Source of the DNA: an uncultured Spirochaetota bacterium
GTDB lineage: Bacteria; Spirochaetota; Spirochaetia; SZUA-6; CAVTHK01
Length of the DNA: 64,000 bases
Direction of reading: 5' to 3'
NCBI GenBank assembly: GCA_963734495.1
Contig: CAVTHK010000001.1
Span: 512,001 to 576,000 of the forward strand
The notes beneath the pieces were generated by a model, which saw nothing but the letters and a program-made list of their open reading frames with translations, made no database searches and was not told the DNA's origin. The position numbers and the translations under genes are program-made. Positions 18,303 through 29,009 of this stretch are shown here, one piece after another (the first letter of the stretch is position 1; each line of letters starts with the position of its first letter).

Positions 18303-19722
18303 CTACATGTCGAAGTACAGCACGTACTCCCAGGGATGCGGCCTGAGGGCCAGGGCCTTCACCTCGTTCGTCATCTTGTAGTCGATCCAGGTGTCGATGA
18401 CGTCGGGCGTGAACACGTCGCCCTTGAGCAGGAACTCGTGGTCCGCCTTGAGGGCGTTGAGCGACCCCTCGAGGCTGCCCGGCGTCGTGGGGACCTTGGC
18501 GAGCTCCTCGGGCGGGAGGTCGTAGAGGTCCTTGTCGAGCGGTCCGCCCGGGTCGAGCTTGTTGAGGATCCCGTCCATGGCCGCCATGGTGATGGCGCTG
18601 AAGGTCAGGTACGGGTTGCACGACGGGTCGGGGCAGCGGAACTCGATCCGCTTGGCCTTGGCGCTCTTGGAGTACATCGGGATGCGCACCGCGGCGGAGC
18701 GGTTGCGGCTCGAGTAGGCCAGGTTGACCGGGGCCTCGAAACCCGGCACCAGGCGCTTGTAGCTGTTGGTCGTCGGGCTGGCAAAGGCCAGGATCGCGGG
18801 CGCGTGCTTGATGATGCCGCCGATCGCGTAGAGCGCCTGCTGGCTCAGGCCGGCGTACTTGTCACCGGCAAAGTTGTTCTTGCCGCCCTTCCACAGCGAG
18901 AAGTGGGTGTGCATGCCGCTGCCGTTGTCGTTCCAGATCGGCTTGGGCATGAACGTGACGGTCTTGTTGTGCTTCTTGGCGACGTTCTTGATGACGTACT
19001 TGTACTTGAGCATCTTGTCGGACATCGCGAGCAGCGTGTCGAAGCGCATGTCGATCTCGCTCTGGCCGGCAGTGGCGACCTCGTGGTGCTGAGCCTCGAT
19101 CTCGATGCCCACGCTCTCGAGGGTGAGCAGCATCTCGCTGCGGATGTCCTGGAACTTGTCGTTGGGCGGGACCGGGAAGTAGCCTTCCTTGTACCGGATC
19201 TTGTAGCCGAGGTTCGGGTTCTCCTCGCGGCCGGTGTTCCAGCGGCCTTCGATCGAGTCGATGTAGTAGTAGCCGGAGTGCTCGTTCTGGTCGTAGCGGA
19301 CGTCGTCAAAGATGAAGAACTCCGCCTCGGGCCCGATGAACGCCTGGTCCGCGATCCCGCTCGCCTTGACATAGGCCTCGACCTTGGTGGCGATGTGACG
19401 CGGGTCGCGGGAGTAGTCCGCGCCGGTGATCGGGTCGCAGATGTTGCAGATCATGACGAGCGTCTTGTGCTCGGTGAACGGGTCGAGGAACGCGGTGTCG
19501 GCGACAGGCTTGACGAGCATGTCGCTCTCGTTGATGGCCTGCCACCCGCGGATGCTCGAGCCGTCGAAGCCGAGCCCCGCTGCTGAACGTGTCCTCCTCG
19601 ATCACGTGCGCCGGCACCGAGAAGTGCTGCCACAGTCCCGGAAAGTCCATGAAGCGCAGGTCTACGATCTGCACCTTCTCCTTTGCGATGAAGTCCACGA
19701 CTTCCTTGCCTGTTTTGAACAT
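18303..19722 (-). CDS. glnA: Glutamine synthetase type I (single frameshift near 19580)
   Basis: [55 protein letters not shown] adenylylation site. Confidence 0.95.
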
Positions 19723-19789
19723 AACTGCTCCTTGATCGCGTGCGATTGCCTACGCCTGCCAGGTCTGGGCGACAGGTCGTACAAGGATA

Positions 19790-19805
19790 AGCAAGACTCG
19801 TGCCG
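19790..19805 (-). promoter_or_regulatory. Sigma-54 (-24/-12) promoter of glnA
   Basis: Reverse strand CGGCACGAGTCTTGCT is GG-N10-GC, close to the TGGCACG-N4-TTGC consensus, about 70 nt upstream of the ATG. Confidence 0.75.
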
Positions 19806-20033
19806 TCTTCTGCGCTCAGGGCCTCGGGGGCCGAAGAAGGTCCTGAAAGGGTTCCCGAACGCCCCGCTGCGCGCGCCGCCGAGTGCAAATTTCGCAGTCT
19901 GCGTCCCGCAGTCGCACAAGCGGGCGCAGGCGTCGCTACGGAAACGTCGTGCGAACACCCCGCCTCCTACAGGAATGTAGGCTCACTCGTCGTGAGGCGG
20001 CCCTGTCCGCGAGCGGCGAGGGCCGGGCCCGGG

Positions 20034-20714
20034 TCACAGGCGGAAGCGCTCGTTCCGTTGCTTCAGGAGCCACTCGTACAGCTTCGGGTTGGCGTACGTC
20101 TTCGTCCACGAGTCGTGCGCCGCCTTCGGGTACACGGTGAACCTGACTCCGCTGCCGGCCTCGCGCAGGGCATCGACCAGCACCCGGGATTCGCGAATCG
20201 GAACCGTCCTGTCCTGAGCGCCGTGAAAGACCCAGATCGGCAGGTCCGCGAGCAACTTGACGCGCTCGGGGAAGCCCAGGGCGGGCGTCGCACGTCCGCA
20301 GACGGGGACGGCGGCGGCAAAGGCCCGCGGGTGCTCCGCGGCGAGGTGCCACGTCCCGGCCCCGCCCATGCTCAGCCCCGTGAGGTAGATGCGGCTGGTG
20401 TCGATCGCGTAGAGCGCGATCACTTCCTTGAGCAGAGCGCCGAGCGCTTCCATCTGGAAGATCCAGGCCGACCCGAGCGGACACTGCGGCGCCACGAGCA
20501 CGAAGGGGAAGTCGCGCCCCGCTTCCGCCAGCTTCGGCGGGCCGTGCTTCGCCACCAGCGACAGGTCGGCCCCCCGCTCGCCCATGCCGTGGAGGAACAC
20601 CATCAGCGGCCGTCCGCCGCGTGCCGTCCTCCGGGCCTTCGGCAGGTACACCAGGTAGTCGAGCTCGACCCGCTTGCGGACCGTAGCCTTGAATCGCGCT
20701 TGCGTCCCTCTCAC
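20034..20714 (-). CDS. Alpha/beta-hydrolase (phospholipase/carboxylesterase or predicted peptidase)
   Basis: VFLHGMGERG, TGLSMGG, WVFHGAQD, HDSW; GTG start after AGGAGG. Confidence 0.88.
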   Translation of the reverse strand: MRGTQARFKATVRKRVELDYLVYLPKARRTARGGRPLMVFLHGMGERGADLSLVAKHGPPKLAEAGRDFPFVLVAPQCPLGSAWIFQMEALGALLKEVIALYAIDTSRIYLTGLSMGGAGTWHLAAEHPRAFAAAVPVCGRATPALGFPERVKLLADLPIWVFHGAQDRTVPIRESRVLVDALREAGSGVRFTVYPKAAHDSWTKTYANPKLYEWLLKQRNERFRL

Positions 20715-20724
20715 CGCCTGCCTC

Positions 20725-21162
20725 CTATGCGGATGCTCGCGGCGTTCTGCCGCGAAACAGGACCCGAACCCCGAGAGCGAGGCTCGCGACCGCGTTGGCA
20801 AGCAGCCACAGTCGGTCGTCGAGCGACGTGCCGTCGATGAGCGAACCGACGAACGGAAACTTGACCGGATGCGACTGAAAGGCGTCCAGGAAAAGGTGAA
20901 CAGTGAAGGCTGCCGCCCCGCCCGCCGCGACTCCCGCCGCCAGCGACGCGAGCCAGCGCGGGCGCCAGCGGCCGCGCGCGGCCCAGCACAGCAGCAGCGG
21001 CACGAGCGCCGAGTGAAACGCGAAGTAGCGGTGGTAGCCCGGCCCGAGCACGGCGATGTCGCGGTCCGGGAAGTCGCGAAGGACGAGCATCCCGATCCCG
21101 GCGCCGACGAGCGTCACAACCCACAGCGCGGGCGACCTGAGGGTCACGACTGGGTGCCTCAT
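20725..21162 (-). CDS. Hypothetical membrane protein (metal-dependent hydrolase-like D/H motifs)
   Basis: MRHPVVTL...FPDRD...HRYFAFHS...VHLFLD; ATG overlaps the upstream stop codon. Confidence 0.6.
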   Translation of the reverse strand: MRHPVVTLRSPALWVVTLVGAGIGMLVLRDFPDRDIAVLGPGYHRYFAFHSALVPLLLCWAARGRWRPRWLASLAAGVAAGGAAAFTVHLFLDAFQSHPVKFPFVGSLIDGTSLDDRLWLLANAVASLALGVRVLFRGRTPRASA

Positions 21163-21695
21163 CGGTTCCCCTTCGCGACCCAGTCGACGGCGACTCCCGC
21201 CGCGTTCCGCAGCCGGTCCACCAGCTGCCCCGTGTGATGCTCCAGGTGCCGGAGGTTGTAGAGGTGCAGCTCCAGCTTGCTCAGCTTTAGCCAGAAGAAG
21301 CCGGAGGGGGCTTCGAGGTCGGCCGCGTCCACGCTGCGATCGAGCCCGGGCCCGAGCTCCTCGACGTAGGCGAGCAGCTCCTCTCTGGTGTAGGGCGTGC
21401 GCGGCCCCGGCAGGGTGTGCGGCGGCCACGGCGTCGACTCCTGGAACTGGTAGTCCTTCCGGTGCTTCGACCACGCCTTGAAAGACTTCTCGTCGGGCGA
21501 GGAGTACAGGTGCGTGTAGAAGAGCGCGTGGTAGGCGACGTGCCAGAAGGGGAACCTGAACTGCGGGTCGGTCCACAAGCCGTCGGGGCACTCGCGGATG
21601 GCGGCGGCGAGCTGCGACAGCGCCGCGTGGTACTGGCCCTTGATCGCGCCGCAGATCGCGCCGCAGATCGCGCTCGCTCCCTCGCCCGTCTCCAT
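21159..21695 (-). CDS. DinB/YfiT family protein
   Basis: FWHVAYHALFY and NLRHLEHHTGQL histidine motifs. Confidence 0.8.
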   Translation of the reverse strand: METGEGASAICGAICGAIKGQYHAALSQLAAAIRECPDGLWTDPQFRFPFWHVAYHALFYTHLYSSPDEKSFKAWSKHRKDYQFQESTPWPPHTLPGPRTPYTREELLAYVEELGPGLDRSVDAADLEAPSGFFWLKLSKLELHLYNLRHLEHHTGQLVDRLRNAAGVAVDWVAKGNR

Positions 21696-21817
21696 GCCCC
21701 GCCCGGCCGGCCTGCACGGTGCCGCCCGCCGCCTTAGGAGATTAGGCCAACACGGGCCGTGGCGCAAGGCGCGCGCGTGCTGGAGCCGCCGCCCGACCGG
21801 GGGTAGACTCGCCCCCG

Positions 21818-22189
21818 ATGCAGGAGCTCCCGATCGGCGAGAGCGCGACTACCGACGGAGCCGGAGCGACACTGGTTCTGCCGCTACTGCGGCACGATCA
21901 TCACCTCCGACGCGCGAGCGCATCGAGCGCGACGGGGAGTTCAGGCACACGTTCGCCAACCCGGGCGGCTACGTCTTCGGAATCGGCTGCTTCGCGGACG
22001 CGCCGGGGTGCGTGGAGGCAGGCGACTACACCGCGCGAGCACACGTGGTTCGCGGGCTTCGAGTGGTGCTACGCCTTCTGCAGCGGATGCACGAGCCACC
22101 TCGGGTGGCGCTACCGCGGCGGCGAGGAGCGCGAGGAAGACGCCTTCTACGGCCTGATCCTCGACCGGCTCATCGCGCCGGACGCTTGA
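21818..22189 (+). CDS. Cereblon-family (CULT/thalidomide-binding domain) Zn protein, compensating frameshifts
   Basis: Joined frames give CRYCG...HTFANPGGYVFGIGCF...EHTWFAGFEWCYAFCSGCTSHLGWRY. Confidence 0.85.
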   Translation: MQELPIGESATTDGAGATLVLPLLRHDHHLRRASASSATGSSGTRSPTRAATSSESAASRTRRGAWRQATTPREHTWFAGFEWCYAFCSGCTSHLGWRYRGGEEREEDAFYGLILDRLIAPDA

Positions 22190-22776
22190 GCGAGGCGGCC
22201 GTGCCGGGGCCCAGCGCGGCGTCGCGCACCTGCGCCTCGAGAGCCTCGAGCGTGCGCCTCGTTGACGATCATCACGTCGGCCATGGCGATGGGTCCGCCC
22301 TTCTCTATGCCTTCGATCTCGGCGTAGTCGCGCCGGCGCGCCTCGTCGGGGCGCAGGCGCCGGAGCGTGCGCGCGGGATCCGCTTCGGCTTCGGCCCGCT
22401 CGGCCAGGCGCGCATAGCGGATCGCAGGCGAAGCGTGGATCGCGATCACGGCGAACGTTTCGGGAAAGCGCTCCTTGAGGATCTTGTACTCGCTCCACGA
22501 GTACAGGCCGTCGATCACGACCGGGCCCGCGAGCCAGCTCCCGCTCGATGTCCGGCAGCAGCAGCCTCGGCGTACGCGCCCATGCCGTGCTCGCGCCGCA
22601 GCGCCTCGCGCATGCGCTTCTCGTTGTCCGGGGTGACCTCCCAGCCGTGCCTCGACGAGCCGGTCGATCGTGAGCTTGCCGAAGCGGATGTAGCCCCAGC
22701 CCTCGCGGCGCAGCACCTCGCAGGCGGCCGACTTGCCCGAGCCGGTCATGCCGACGACGGCGACGAGGCGGTTCAC
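22170..22776 (-). CDS. P-loop nucleotide kinase, archaeal UPF0200/dephospho-CoA-kinase-like, frameshifted
   Basis: VAVVGMTGSGKS, VIDGLYSWSEY, RRRDYAEIEGIEKGGPIAMAD; GTG overlaps the argA stop. Confidence 0.75.
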
Positions 22777-24130
22777 GAGCCGGCCCTCTCGGGGCCGGCC
22801 TCGGAGAGCCGGAAGACGAGCACGCGGGAGCCGCGCTTGCGGTCGTAGGTCCCCCGCCGCTCGGGCGGAAGGTCCTCGACGGTCCCCAGCGTAAAGCCGA
22901 GCTCGGCGAACCAGTCCCAGGTCTGCGTCGTCAGGGCGAACGCGCGGGTCAGGCCCATCTTGCGCGCCTTCTGCAGCAGGAACTGCACGACCTTGCGCCC
23001 GATGCCGAGGCTCACGTAGCTGTCGTCGACGGCGATCCCCGCGATCTCGGCCGCGTCCCCCGGAATACCGGTGCAGGGCGCCGCAGGCGTGCACGCGGCC
23101 GTCGACCTCGAACACGACGAAGTCGTCGAGCCGCTCCTCGAGCAGCTCGGCGCTGCGCTGCACGAGGATCCCCTTTTCCACCGCGGGCTGCATGATGCGC
23201 AGGACCTGCGGGATGTCCTCGAGCCTCATCGGCCGGATGCCCGGCGTGCTCGTCGGCGTAGATCATGGTGCCCGCGCCTTCGCTGGAAAAGATCTCCTTG
23301 AGCACGACGCCGTCGAGCCTCCCGTCGACGACGTGGACGCGGGGCACGCCCGACTCGCAGGCCTGGCAGGCGAGGCGCACGAGGTTGAGCGCGGCGGTCC
23401 TCGGCGCGGCCCGGGTTGAGCTCCAGGAGCTGCCGCGCCTGCTCGTGCGGTGAGCCTGCGGAAGGCAGCCGTCGCGCGCGGGCTCGATGTCGGCGGGCAG
23501 CCGGTAGTCGGCCGGCCGGGATGCCGGCCCGCGTCCACATGAAGAACAGCTTCTCGGCGAACAGCTCGCCGCGCGAGGCTGGCCGCCAGCTCGTCCGAGG
23601 AGATGTTGTACGGCCTGCCCGCCCGCGCTCCACCCGATGTTGGGGAAGATCGGGATCACGCCGTCGGCGAGCACGCTGCGCACGATGTCGCCCTTGATCC
23701 GGTCCACCAGGCCGCTCTCCTGGTAGTCCACGCCGTCGCGCACGCCGATGGCGCGCGCCCGCACCCAGTTGCCGATCACGCCGTCGACGCGGTTCTCGGC
23801 GAGCAGGGTCATGACGCGGTTGGAGACGTCAAAGGCCGCCATCTTGATAAAGGGGATCGCCTCCGCGCGTCGAGATGCGGATGCCGTTCGACGGTCTTCC
23901 ACTGGATCGCCGTACTTGGTGAGGATCTCGTCGATGCGGCTCTGGGCGCCGGGCACGATCGCGATGCGGATGCCGAGCCTGTGCAGCAGCGCGAGGTCGC
24001 TCACGAGCACCGCGAACAGCGGGTCCATGATGATCTCGGTGTCGATCTTGATGACGAAGAGCTTGCCGCGGAACTGGGAGATGTAGCCGAAGGCCTGGCG
24101 GATCAGCTCGACCTGCCCCGAGAGGGTCAT
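22773..24130 (-). CDS. argA: Amino-acid N-acetyltransferase (N-acetylglutamate synthase), multiply frameshifted
   Basis: YISQFRGKLFVIK, ARAIGVRDGVDY, EIFSSEGAGTMI, GNAT domain ACGALH...ALTTQTWDWF, NRKRGSRV-like tail. Confidence 0.88.
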
Positions 24131-24311
24131 GCCCAGAGAGTAGCCGATCCGGCGCGGGGTGACAATTGCGCGCGGAGGTTGGGTAGAGGGGAAGCCTCGG
24201 CGCGACGGCGCCGATCGCGCCCGCGGCGAAGCCGCTCGAGCAGAGCGGCTGCGTCTTCGCCGTGGAACGCGATCGACGTTTCGGTCCCCGGTCGCCGGGG
24301 CGCGCGAGGCC

Positions 24312-25108
24312 CTACAGCTGCGTGTTCTGCACTACGTCCCACTGGCCGGCGACCGTCCCGCACGGACGACCCGTCGGACGCCGTAGACGGTAGTAGGTGA
24401 TCTTCACCTTTCCGAAGCTCAAGGTGACCTCTTCGACGAAGCTTCCGCGCCGGATGTGCCGGCGGGCTTGAAGGAGCTCAGGAACACGTCCTGAAGCTCG
24501 TATCTCAGCACGAGCCGGAACCGCTTCGCTTGACTGCCGGCCGATATCCACTGTCGCCTGCTGGATATGGGTGCCGCTGGCCGTGTCGATGAACAGCGTG
24601 GGCGAGGCCTTGTCCACGACCTTCAGGATCCTGAAGTCCTGGAAGGTGGCCTTGCCCGCGCCGCCGCCGCCGCCGCCGCCGCCGCTGGAGCCGGTCTGCG
24701 TGACCCCGAAGCTGTAGCCCAGGGTATCGATCCAGTTCGGATGACCCGCGTCGGTCGATTCACCGTCGATGCCCGTCGATCTGCGTAAAGATGGCGAACC
24801 CCGCGAGCACGGGCACGTCGCTCGCCGCTGTTCCGGCGAGCCCCTCCACGTTGACCGTCACGTCGCTCGGGGTGCCGGCGGGCCCCTGAGCGCCCTGCGG
24901 CCCGGCTGGGCCCTGCGCGCCGGCCGGCCCCTGCGGACCAGGGGTGAGCTGGATGGTCTGGAGGGACTGGGAGAGGGACTGGACTTGCGCCGTGAGCCTG
25001 TCCACCTGGGCCTTCAGGCCGTTGTCAGCGTTCTGCGCCCACGCGGACGCCGGCCAGCACCATGGTGAGCACGGCCGTGAACGAAAGGAACTTGAGGTAC
25101 TTCCGCAT
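24312..25108 (-). CDS. Signal peptide + coiled coil + collagen-like repeat + Hcp (T6SS tube) domain fusion, frameshifted
   Basis: RBS AGGAGG; MRKYLKFLSFTAVLTMVLA-ASAWA/Q; 8 Gly-X-Y triplets; then IDGIDGESTDAGHPNWIDTLGYSFG...GKATFQDF..VDKASPTLF..SGTHI..EEVTLSFGKVKITY..WDV. Confidence 0.8.
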
Positions 25109-25601
25109 GACACTTTCCTCCTGGCGCGTAAGTTCGAAAGGCCGACGGCGGAAGTCAAGAAGAACCGGCTGCCGTGTCAAGGCTGCCGCGATGACGCGGG
25201 CGCGGGCGAACCGGTGACAACGCGACGCGCTGCGGGCTCGAGGTCAGGCGGTTCACAACGCGCGGCTGATGAAGAGGTTGCCGAGGTGCGAGGAGCGGAA
25301 GGCCTGGCGGATCAGCTCGGGAAGCCGCGGCGCGGCGGCGTGGGCGCCGATTGCGCCCGCGGGGAAGTCGCAGTCATCGTCGGGAAGGATGCGTGACGTC
25401 CCCGTGGTACGCAACGGAGGCACCCGGAAGGATCGAATGTCCTATATCTCTTTGTTCGCCGCCAGGTCTGAGCGTTGCTTCCTCCTCGTTATGCTCTCCG
25501 GCAACGGCGACTGTCTGTCAAAAGCCGGATCTCGGACTTGCGCGCGGAGGCGCCGGCGCGCGCGCTTGCCGGCACGCGCCCCTTGTCCCTACACTCGCGT
25601 G

Positions 25602-26401
25602 GTGGCCGTGATCTACGTCGGAACCAGCGGCTACTCGTATTCGGACTGGGTCGGCCCCGTCTACCCGGCGGGGACGCGGCAGCGCGACTTTCTGGAGCTG
25701 TACGCGCGCGAGTTCGCCATGGTGGAGCTGAACTTCTCCTTCTACTCCCGGCCCAGGGCGGAACAGCTCGCGCGCATGGCGGACAGGGCGGGCGAGCGGA
25801 TGCTCTTCAGCGTCAAGGCGCACCAGTCCCTGACGCACGAGCGGCCGGAGGATCCCGGCGCCCGAGGCGGCCGCGCTGCGCGACGCAGTAGCGCCCGCTG
25901 GCGGAGCGGTCGAGGCTCGGCGCGGTTCTCGTGCAGTTTCCCTTCAGCTTTCACTACGACGTGCCCTCGCGGCGGTACCTCGACCGCCTCTGCCGCAGCC
26001 TCGAGGGGCTGCCGGCGGCGGTCGAGTTCCGCAACCGGGAGTGGCAGCGCGAGTCGGTGCTGCAGTCGCTCGCGGAGCGCAGCGTGGCGTTCGTGAACGT
26101 GGACCAGCCCGAGCTGCCGGAGCTGCTGGAGGCGAGCGAGGCGGCTACCGCGGACCTCGGCTACCTGCGCTTCCACGGCCGCAACAAGACGAACTGGTGG
26201 ACGGGGGACAACGCGACGCGCTACGACTACCTGTACTCGGACGGCGAGCTGGAAGGGTGGGTGGACCGGGTGCGGGCGATCCTGAGGCGGGCACGGACGT
26301 TGCTGATCGCCTTCAACAATCACTTCAGAGGTCAGGCTGTCCAGAACGCGCGGATGATGAAGGGCCTGCTGGCTCGAGACGGTATCGGGCCGGTCGCCTG
26401 A
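25602..26401 (+). CDS. DUF72 domain protein (YecE-like), frameshift near 25870
   Basis: IYVGTSGYSYSDWVGPVYP, VELNFSFY, QFPFSF, VEFRN, YLRFHGRN, YDYLYS, FNNH. Confidence 0.9.
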
Positions 26402-26457
26402 CGGCCGGCTCGCGGCGACTTGTCGAAGGCGTGGATGATGAATCTGATTGTCGGGTA

Positions 26458-26486
26458 TTGATTCCCGCGAGGGGCGTTATTATATT
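26458..26486 (+). promoter_or_regulatory. Sigma-70 promoter TTGATT-N17-TATATT
   Basis: Near-consensus AT-rich hexamers with 17-nt spacing, directly upstream of the hairpin repeat array. Confidence 0.75.
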
Positions 26487-26492
26487 CCGGTC

Positions 26493-26662
26493 AGCGCACA
26501 TGCTTCTGTCGGGGCCTCCCGGGTTTTCGACCTCCTTTTCCCCGGGAACCAACCTTGACAGGGGCGGCCCCCCGGGTTTTCGACCTCCTTTTCCCTGGGG
26601 GCTTTTTTTTGCCTTGCGGCCCCCGGGGATTCGACCTCCTTTTCCCCGGGGGCTTTCATTTT
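26493..26662 (+). ncRNA. Candidate small RNA with three GC-stem hairpins carrying the conserved loop UUCGACCUCCUUU (anti-SD)
   Basis: Three repeats at 26517-26547, 26567-26602 and 26619-26653. T8 tract after hairpin 2, TTTCATTTT after hairpin 3, promoter upstream, no credible ORF. Confidence 0.65.
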
Positions 26663-26735
26663 CGCGCTGCCCGTGCCGCCCAGTGCCGCTCCCGGCCGGG
26701 TTGACATTCCGAGGGCAAAAAGCTTGACTTCTCGC

Positions 26736-27793
26736 ATGCTCTATGCGCTGGGCCAGCTGCTGGCGCCCGTCTACGGGCCGTTCCGGCTGCTGCGCTCCCA
26801 CCTGTTCCTGGCCGTGCTCGGCCTGATGGCCTGCTGGTACCTGTCCTGGAAGCTGCTGCCCCTTCTCGCCTGCCGGCTCCCGAGCGATCGCGGCAGGCAG
26901 TACGCCGTCGGCAGCGAGCACGCCAAGGGGAAGCCGACCGGCGCCGGTCTTCTCTTCGTCTCCATCTACCTGCTGGTCCTGCTTCTCGTCGTGCCGTGGG
27001 ACGCCAGCTACCTGGTGGTCATGGCGTGCATCTTCGTGGCGATGCTCTTCGGCTACTTCGACGACCGGGCGACTCACCCCTGGTCGGAGTACACCAAGGG
27101 TTTCATCGACCTCGTGCTGGCGCTGATCGCGGCCTCGGCGCTTTGGGTGTTCAAGTTCCACGAGGCGCCGGTGTGGCTGCCCCTGACAAAGAAGTTCTTC
27201 CACGTTCGGACCGGTGCCTTTCATCGCCGGCGCTTCCGCCCTGATCTGGCTCGTCGTCAACGCCGTCAACTGCACGGACGGCATCGACGGCCTGTCGGGC
27301 ACCCTGTCCGTCCTCGCGCTGCATCAGCCTGGGGGTCGTGCTGGCCTTCGTGGTCGGGCATGCGCTGTTCGCCGGATACTTCCTGGTGCCGCACTACCCC
27401 GACGGCGCGCGCTGGGCGATCATGGCGTTCGCGATGGTCGGCAGCCTCTTCGGCTATCTCTGGCACAACGCCTATCCCAGCGCGCTGCTGATGGGCGACG
27501 CGGGCTCGCGCGCCGTGGGCCTCCTCATCGGCATCCTCGTGATCGCGACGGGCAATCCCTTCGTCATCCTCACCGTCGCCACGGTGGTGCTGGTCAACGG
27601 CGGCACCGGCCTGATCAAGGTGGCGCTCCTGCGCTTCTTCCGCATCGGGATCTTCCACGACGTCCGCTTCCCGCTGCACGACCACTTCAGGGACAAGTGG
27701 GGGTGGAGCAACACGCAGGTGCTGCTGCGCTTCGCCATCGCGCAGACCCTGCTCACCATCGTCCTTCTGTCGGTCCTGGTGAAGATCAGATAA
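26736..27793 (+). CDS. mraY: Phospho-N-acetylmuramoyl-pentapeptide transferase, frameshifted at ~27200-27330
   Basis: FGYFDD, NAVNCTDGIDGL, NAYPSALLMGDAGS, PLHDHF; GKPTGAG variant of the TPTMGG loop. Confidence 0.88.
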
Positions 27794-27859
27794 TAGATTG
27801 AAGAAGTCCGCCGCCCGGCTTTCCGCACCCGGCGCCGGCGGTCCGTCTGTGAGCGCGTT

Positions 27860-29009
27860 GTGAGGAAGAACAGGCTGCAGGTCGAGCTCGAGGCCCGGCG
27901 GGCCGCGGGGCCCGTCATCGACCTGATCGACACGAGCTTCCACGCCAACGGGCTACCTGTTCCCCGCCGGGCCGCTGGCGGAGTGGCTCGCGGAATACGC
28001 GGGCAGCCGAAGCTACTCGCCGCACCCGCGCGGCTCGCCCGAAGCGCGGGCGAGCATCGCGGCGTACTATGCGGCGGCGGGCATTCGCCTCGACGCCGAG
28101 AGCATCCTCATCACCGCGTCGGCTTCGGAGAGCTACCACCTGCTGTTCAACACACTGGCAGAGCCCGGAGACAACGTGCTCCTGCCCAGGCCCGGCTACC
28201 CGCTGTTCGACTACCTCGCCTCGTTCAGCCGCCTCGAGACCCGCTCCTACCGCCTCGATCCCGATCGCGCCTGGAGCGTCGATCTGGAGTCGGTGGAGCG
28301 GGCGATCGACGGGAGGACCCGCTTCGTCGTGCTGATCTCGCCCAACAACCCCACGGGCCGGGTGGCTTCGGCTGCCGAGGTCGAGGGGCTGCTCGCGGTC
28401 TGCGCCCGGCGCGGCGTCCCCGTCGTCTGCGACGAGGTCTTCAGCGAGTTTCTCTACGATGGGGCGACTCTCGCGCGACCCGCCGCAGCCGACAGCGGCG
28501 TCCTCGTGTTCACGCTCAACGGCGTGTCCAAGATGTTCGCGTCGCCGGACCTCAAGCTGGGATGGATCGCCGTGACCGGGCCGCGGGGCCGCGCAGGCGA
28601 AGCGCTCGAGGCTCTCGAGACGGTCAACGACATCTACTTGAGCTGCTCGAGCCCGGCGCAGTTTCTCCTGCCGCGGCTGTTCGCGCACGGGGCGGCATTC
28701 CAGCGCGGGATGGTGGCGCGCGTCGATGCGGGCCGACGGCTTCTCGTCGGCCTGCTCTCGAGCCTGCCGCGCGTGCGCCTCGCGACCCCGACCGGCGGCA
28801 TCCACGCGATCCTGGACCTCGGGCCCCAGGCCACCGGCGCACCCGACGATGAGGAGCTCTGCGTCCGGCTCCTCCGCGAGCAGTCGGTCTACGTGCACCC
28901 CGGGTACTTCTACGACATCGAGGACCGGGTCGCCTTCATTTTGAGCTTCCTCAAGGAGAAGTCCCAGCTCGAAGAGGGGCTGGCGCGCCTGGCGCGATTC
29001 CTCGGCTGA
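27860..29009 (+). CDS. PLP-dependent aminotransferase class I/II (frameshift near 27960)
   Basis: PRPGYPLF, SPNNPTG, CDEVF, GVSKMFASPDLKLGW. Confidence 0.88.

Follow-up and report, generated by a model that had tools for sequence, protein, structure and literature searches.

Hcp (TssD) is treated as a hallmark of Type VI secretion systems (T6SS). The canonical protein carries no signal sequence and is exported by the T6SS itself; it is some 160–170 aa long, starts at the Hcp domain, and acts as a chaperone for effectors. VgrG and the phage protein gp27 are pseudo-hexameric trimers. The collagen-like surface proteins of bacteria (e.g. streptococcal Scl1 and Scl2, Legionella Lcl and Bacillus BclA) are built on repeats of Gly-X-Y (GXY). 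Collagen repeats trimerise, their rise is 2.9 Å per residue, and the heads of Scl/Lcl/BclA-type proteins are V-domains or C1q-like domains. The literature that we searched in full text holds no description of a signal- or collagen-bearing Hcp; on Hcp fusions, two passages of PMC3482391 deal with Hcp1–toxin fusions only. The mosaic adhesive trimer (MAT) fibres of Bdellovibrio bacteriovorus are surface-displayed trimeric fibres with exchangeable tips, according to the abstract (PMC10769870).

Here we describe a gene in which a signal peptide, a collagen stalk and an Hcp domain are joined. It lies in a 64,000-nucleotide stretch of DNA (‘the window’) from an uncultured Spirochaetota bacterium, positions 512,001 to 576,000 of contig CAVTHK010000001.1. 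We consider it rather likely that the gene is genuine and accessory, with indels of the assembly as its only damage, and that its product leaves the cytoplasm by Sec and puts the T6SS tube fold to use where no T6SS exists, working as trimeric collagen stalks with Hcp heads in six-domain rings.

The gene occupies the minus strand, as do all of its features given below, from 25108 to 24312 when read across three frames, and encodes about 265 aa. A Shine–Dalgarno sequence, AGGAGG (25117..25122), is read directly 8 nt upstream of the ATG at 25108. A Sec-type signal peptide follows (25036..25108). It starts in frame 2 with MRKYLKFLSFTAVLTMVLAG, passes through the first frame break at ~25045–25060, and ends in frame 0; its n-region is MRKYLK, its h-region FLSFTAVLTMVLAG and its c-region SAWA, followed by Q, with no lipobox cysteine anywhere in it. 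Signal peptides were called by eye together with a Kyte–Doolittle score, in this protein and in its relatives. Frame 0 (25044–24763) then runs from ..SAWAQNADNG through LKAQVDRLTAQVQSLSQSLQTIQL, TP, eight GXY triplets and a linker to ..FAIFTQIDG. The segment LKAQVDRLTAQVQSLSQSLQTIQL (24946..25017) comprises 24 residues, or 3.5 heptads, with hydrophobic residues in strict 3–4 spacing, and is presumed to be a coiled coil that serves as the trimerisation nucleus of the adjoining collagen. The eight triplets of the frame-0 read (24868..24939) are GPQ GPA GAQ GPA GPQ GAQ GPA GTP; the repeat is short, and Pfam Collagen scores 22.9 bits on this open reading frame, below its cut-off of 27.2. The linker, SDVTVNVEG..VPVLAG (24799..24867), is conserved in our alignment A1, and has low pLDDT in the monomer model of an orthologue.

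The Hcp domain (24315..24798; Pfam T6SS_HCP) begins at about residue 104 and contains the five remaining frame breaks. Its pieces run over frames 1, 2, 1, 0 and 1: IDGESTDAGHPNWI.., a poly-Gly stretch and VDKASPTLF.. in frame 1 (24779–24516), RFRLVLRYELQDVFLSSFKPAGTSGAE in frame 2, FVEEVTLSFGKVKITYY in frame 1, and the C-terminal pieces DGSSV in frame 0 and GQWDVVQNTQL in frame 1. A TAG stop codon, also read directly, closes the gene at 24312..24314. The signal peptide, heptads, eight triplets and complete Hcp domain that the initial annotation had listed are thus all present in the three minus-strand frames. A scan of 24000–25500 for promoters and terminators returned no sites, and one of 22000–28000 against Rfam no matches. 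Further along, in the gap between the genes for a DUF72 protein and a GT4 glycosyltransferase, are three direct copies of a GC-rich hairpin unit at a spacing of ~52 nt (26516–26661), each reading CCCCCGGG...CCCGGGGG and then a run of T; these have no Rfam match, and might represent either terminators in a stack or a repeat element of small size.

Fold and profile both place the protein in the Hcp domain family. The unaltered frame-1 read matches T6SS_HCP at 85.3 bits against a cut-off of 23.5 (E 5.5e-24), which bears out the claimed Hcp domain, and in a scan of the genome the gene is the only Hcp match in the assembly (E 3.9e-23). The AlphaFold2 (AF2) model of an intact orthologue, P0001, made from an 87-row alignment, has pLDDT >93 for the Hcp part over residues 150–312, a signal helix at residues 2–16, and a helix at 35–57 where the coiled coil lies. 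The collagen stretch is unstructured in the model, as expected for a single chain. The best Foldseek match to this model in the PDB is Pseudomonas aeruginosa Hcp1 (1y12; TMt 0.90, rmsd 2.0 Å, 32% identity), and phmmer against PDB sequences finds 7fcf and 1y12 at E about 1e-26. With TIGR03344, P0001 (59.3), P0002 (56.2), P0004 (57.5) and P0006 (59.0) score close to the cut-off of 58.9.

The fusion does not depend on our joining of frames. Intact orthologues occur in three other genomes, and one of these, from a 99%-complete member of the same genus (G001), is a single uninterrupted open reading frame of 312 aa (P0001; L009:1398-2336) in the same synteny, between the DUF72 and ArgA-like genes as in the window. 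It runs from a signal-like N-terminus through the coiled coil, a stretch of 22 GXY triplets and the PSDVTVNVEG linker to the Hcp domain (residues 158–287), with the Hcp part as a whole starting at residue 151–158. Because one open reading frame holds the same parts in the same order among the same neighbours, the fusion in the window is not an artefact of frame-joining, and what had been claimed as a true fusion stands. Pfam finds both domains in P0001, T6SS_HCP at 111.7 bits (E 3.7e-32) and Collagen at 35.7 bits; in another orthologue Collagen reaches 50.6 bits. The N-termini of P0001, P0002, P0004, P0136 and P0154 all combine a basic n-region with a hydrophobic h-region and a site of the AxA type, as does that of the window gene. 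Translation from an internal start at the Hcp domain was considered and ruled out, no start codon being conserved at the domain boundary in alignment A1.

Whole-length orthologues are few. Two patterns drawn from alignment A1 were scanned against one genome from each of 185,579 species; 101 of the 146 candidates were confirmed, and only three span the whole protein: L014 (the G001 gene), L015 (41% identity) and L016 (48%), all from Spirochaetales or Spirochaetota metagenome-assembled genomes (MAGs). The other confirmed matches, spread across many genomes, cover only the junction of coiled coil and collagen. A DNA search of 40 relatives found a true match in G001 only, with 27–70-nt stretches of GC-rich, collagen or poly-Gly sequence and nothing longer in five others. 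Across the three loci L014, L015 and L016 no conserved gene neighbourhood was found, and no shared neighbour hints at a function.

Collagen–Hcp proteins recur in metagenomes. A word-indexed protein search with the orthologue, over lengths of 171–546 aa, gave a best 120 matches in which 26 contain PF05638, 19 of them together with PF01391; in the remaining 94, collagen is joined to heads of a different kind. Ahead of the collagen there are at least two unrelated N-terminal modules. Module A is the coiled coil, as in the window; module B is a membrane or signal segment with ‘GVIHGCYD...WNQQGP’. A second exported gene in G001 (L097:1438-3161, minus strand, contig C107) encodes a signal-like N-terminus, a ‘IIYGAYQKNSGNLRII’ module of kind B, collagen and two tandem Hcp domains, its collagen repeat being interrupted by an assembly gap of N. 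A tandem-Hcp paralogue of this kind was sought in the genome of the window (G000), and none was found.

An exhaustive HMMER search with the linker and Hcp domain retrieved 8991 proteins at E≤1e-3. Among the best 150, a ranking by summed score that favours multi-domain chains, the number of Hcp domains per chain is one (70 proteins), two (15), three (7), four (6), five (3), six (46) or seven (1), with no full-length domain in two; four, five or seven domains thus occur in just 10. In many of the one-domain matches a hydrophobic N-terminal segment stands ahead of the domain, and by a crude rule 41 of the one-domain relatives are ‘SP_only’ and 22 ‘canonical’. Of the collagen-bearing members, 28 contain a single Hcp domain and five contain two, and none of the 63 chains with three or more has collagen, most collagen-bearing forms having come from the search limited to 171–546 aa. 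The six-Hcp single chains (P0121–P0135 and others) are 909–3652 aa long, and many begin R..L..E.LE.R.LL, which we take to be the motif known from exported proteins of Planctomycetota. One of them, P0127, folds with pTM 0.80, a model that suggests a fixed arrangement of its six domains. In trees of the Hcp domain (FastTree and IQ-TREE), the seven proteins of the coiled-coil type form one group (SH-aLRT 98), and the collagen-bearing forms need at least two origins. Canonical forms are intermixed with signal-bearing ones and the deep branches are unresolved, so the trees give no direction of evolution.

How might such a protein work? The signal peptide would direct Sec export, with cleavage after AWA. 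The coiled coil would then bring three chains into register and nucleate the collagen triple helix; that the product is a trimer is what the known behaviour of collagen repeats implies. Each trimer would hold three C-terminal Hcp domains on linkers of ~23 residues, and these domains would associate with one another as in Hcp rings, probably with two trimers to each six-domain ring. A single trimer of a tandem-Hcp paralogue could supply all six domains. The stalk would be ~70 Å long for eight triplets and ~190 Å for 22. The initial annotation pictured a ring or filament to which trimeric stalks are attached; in our proposal the product would be a stalked ring, either periplasmic or displayed at the surface of a diderm cell of the spirochaete type. 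What it does there is the weakest step: most likely it would be a structural or adhesive scaffold rather than a secretion tube, and a bolder option is that small proteins are captured in the lumen of the ring.

The strongest rival dispenses with the ring. The protein might be an exported collagen-stalked adhesin, its Hcp domain a globular ligand-binding head that is trimeric or independent, like the heads of other collagen-like or fibre proteins of bacteria. The company that the stalk keeps speaks for this: in other proteins the same coiled-coil/collagen module precedes C-terminal domains of many kinds, among them members of the tail-fibre, collar, BclA_C and YadA families, which indicates that such stalks carry interchangeable heads, and the MAT fibres of Bdellovibrio, as described in the abstract, follow the same logic (PMC10769870). 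A trimer, moreover, holds three Hcp domains and not six. Against these points stand the closeness of the domain to Hcp1, which forms rings, at 32% identity and TMt 0.90, and the numbers of domains per chain. Counts of 1, 2, 3 and 6 among relatives, and of 1 or 2 among collagen-bearing forms, fit a six-domain unit, a fit that is correlative. We regard the ringless adhesin as unlikely, and prefer the stalked ring.

A second rival concerns the gene rather than its product: in the strain sampled, it could be a decaying pseudogene, some or all of its frameshifts being real. Two indels, near 25050 and 24770, had been thought sufficient to restore the frame; this proved too few, and six frame changes are needed, at ~25050, 24775, 24523, ~24440, ~24385 and ~24345. 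Short-read contigs of relatives from four public metagenome runs were compared with the window over 24200–25300. The public runs listed as holding matching sequence include no RNA run and hold it in small shares, 0.09 or less; the contigs compared reach two of the six breaks. At 24775, the junction of linker and Hcp domain, the window has one surplus base that is absent from the contigs of all three covering runs (X1, X2 and X3); at 24523 it has another, absent from those of both covering runs (X2 and X3). Breaks four to six (24340..24445) are seen as frame switches in the translations and lie outside the contig cover. The X1 contig crosses the collagen repeat without a change of length, and where contigs differ from the window the differences are mostly synonymous in the assigned frames (7/10, 8/13 and 9/13 changed codons).

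The neighbouring genes are broken as well. Of twelve proteins from the syntenic region of G001 that were compared with the window, seven gave syntenic matches: an aminotransferase, the GT4 glycosyltransferase, the DUF72 protein, the collagen–Hcp protein, an ArgA-like kinase/acetyltransferase, and proteins of 158 and 516 aa. In the window each of the seven corresponding genes, housekeeping ones included, is spread across at least two frames. Across the syntenic block (18306–29003), each comparable gene is split over 2–3 frames, and single-base indels occur throughout the assembly. That assembly totals 5.38 Mb in 18 contigs and is 83% complete; so low a completeness in so few contigs is explained by single-base indels across it. 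Within the collagen–Hcp gene, the residues on both sides of each break align to orthologues. With seven of seven syntenic genes broken, and the surplus base missing from relatives at two sites, assembly error is the likely cause of the breaks. Some chance of decay in the strain is left by their number, six in 0.8 kb against one or two in each neighbour; contigs support error at two of the six and at none of the other four, and the gene is an accessory one, present in few genomes of its order. On balance we think decay improbable, and take the gene to be intact in the organism and broken only in its assembly.

The distribution of Hcp domains bears on whether a T6SS is involved. Within the order to which the window belongs, Hcp domains occur in four of 92 genomes (G000, G001, G009 and G086), in open frames of 181–472 aa, and all are collagen-fusion loci. 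The collagen–Hcp gene is, then, an accessory gene of patchy distribution. The initial annotation held that it is independent of the T6SS, and the search for T6SS genes agrees: profiles for TssB, TssC, TssF and VgrG have no match in the gene's own genome, although at 83% completeness their absence there is not proven. TssC is likewise absent from all three other carriers of a full-length orthologue (the 99%-complete G001, and the genomes of L015 and L016) and from each of the four Hcp carriers of the order. Among the 28 genes neighbouring the three orthologous loci, none of T6SS or phage type was found. TssC matches just one of the 92 genomes of the order, and there as a fragment of 70 residues; it lies on a small contig (G044, contig C323:174-383) of an 81%-complete MAG with no Hcp match, and may be contamination. 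In a sample of the phylum, eight of 401 genomes have an Hcp match. One of these loci, L099, when translated, is a canonical, signal-less Hcp, and another, L103 (G142, contig C28), has a hydrophobic, signal-like segment directly before its Hcp domain. L103 comes from a low-GC genus of the same phylum (g63), five genomes of which have an open frame of ~180 aa with an Hcp match.

The product could also be read as a standard T6SS tube protein, with the rest of its apparatus absent from an incomplete assembly, or as a component of some phage, tailocin or extracellular contractile system. We consider this very improbable, the name in use by public pipelines (‘type VI secretion system tube protein Hcp’) and the incomplete genome being outweighed by the four core families not found there, the lack of TssC in the 99%-complete congener, the lack of phage or T6SS neighbours, the signal, coiled coil and collagen that share one open reading frame with Hcp in the orthologues, and the want of a conserved start codon at the Hcp boundary. 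The labelling has consequences of its own. Pipelines call collagen–Hcp proteins ‘T6SS tube protein’, and because here the Hcp fold stands behind a Sec signal in genomes where a T6SS was not found, such annotations would mislead censuses of the T6SS.

A wider proposal can be made, which we put forward as speculation and think somewhat doubtful. It would place the gene in an extensive and undescribed class, that of Sec-exported ‘exo-Hcp’ rings working with no contractile machine, in which the number of domains per chain multiplied by the oligomeric state equals six, the ring being an ancient module of the envelope or the extracellular space. If so, exo-Hcp proteins would reach six in several ways: as a six-domain chain, as a dimer of three-domain chains, as a collagen trimer of two-domain chains, or as two such trimers of one-domain chains. 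Their ring might serve as scaffold or conduit, or catch small proteins in its lumen (e.g. incoming T6SS effectors), and forms with a collagen stalk would be variants that are tethered or that cross-link. Taken together, the collagen-bearing, signal-only, tandem and six-domain relatives point to a use of the phage-tail-tube fold outside the cytoplasm that is unexplored.

Among the closest known systems, Hcp/TssD (PF05638; TIGR03344; 1y12) has in common with the window protein its fold and clear sequence homology. They differ in what comes before the Hcp domain, to which the window protein adds a Sec-like signal, a coiled coil, collagen and a linker, and in genomic setting, T6SS genes not having been found in carriers of collagen–Hcp. 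In overall plan the protein resembles Scl1/Scl2, Lcl and BclA, exported proteins in which a GXY stalk adjoins a trimerisation element, a putative one in the window protein, and is joined to a globular domain; unlike their V-domain or C1q-like heads, however, its head is an Hcp domain. NCBIfam models for Lcl and Scl match the stalk weakly (58.9 against a cut-off of 500, 52 against 325, and 40.6 against 400), and these scores, far below the equivalog cut-offs, rule out membership of either family. No LPXTG anchor occurs in the collagen–Hcp sequences examined. The MAT fibres of Bdellovibrio, which we compare by description only, are alike in concept, and the abstract describes neither a collagen stalk nor an Hcp tip (PMC10769870).

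Closer to home, the forms with the cysteine-containing ‘GVIHGCYD’ module also join a signal, collagen and Hcp, whereas the lineage of the window has the coiled coil and forms its own clade (SH-aLRT 98). The topology of a large N-terminal partner with Hcp1 behind it is found in engineered ‘assistant hexamer’ fusions: Hcp1 makes up residues 359–515 of 519 in Vps4–Hcp1 (6ap1), 414–570 of 581 in GspE–Hcp1 (4kss/4ksr), and 831–987 of 990 in TrwK–Hcp1 (7o42). We take these to be artificial constructs made to force hexamers. Since Hcp1 is C-terminal in them and 6ap1, 4kss and 7o42 have six chains per entry, an N-terminal stalk is compatible with an Hcp ring. In collagen–Hcp the partner is a natural stalk, presumed to be trimeric. 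Collagen–Hcp would be an instance, provided by nature, in which a six-fold ring domain is coupled to a three-fold collagen stalk, the mismatch being solved either by two trimers per ring or by tandem domains. In the second solution, where one trimer of a tandem-Hcp form would make a six-domain ring, it would resemble the pseudo-hexameric trimers of VgrG and gp27.
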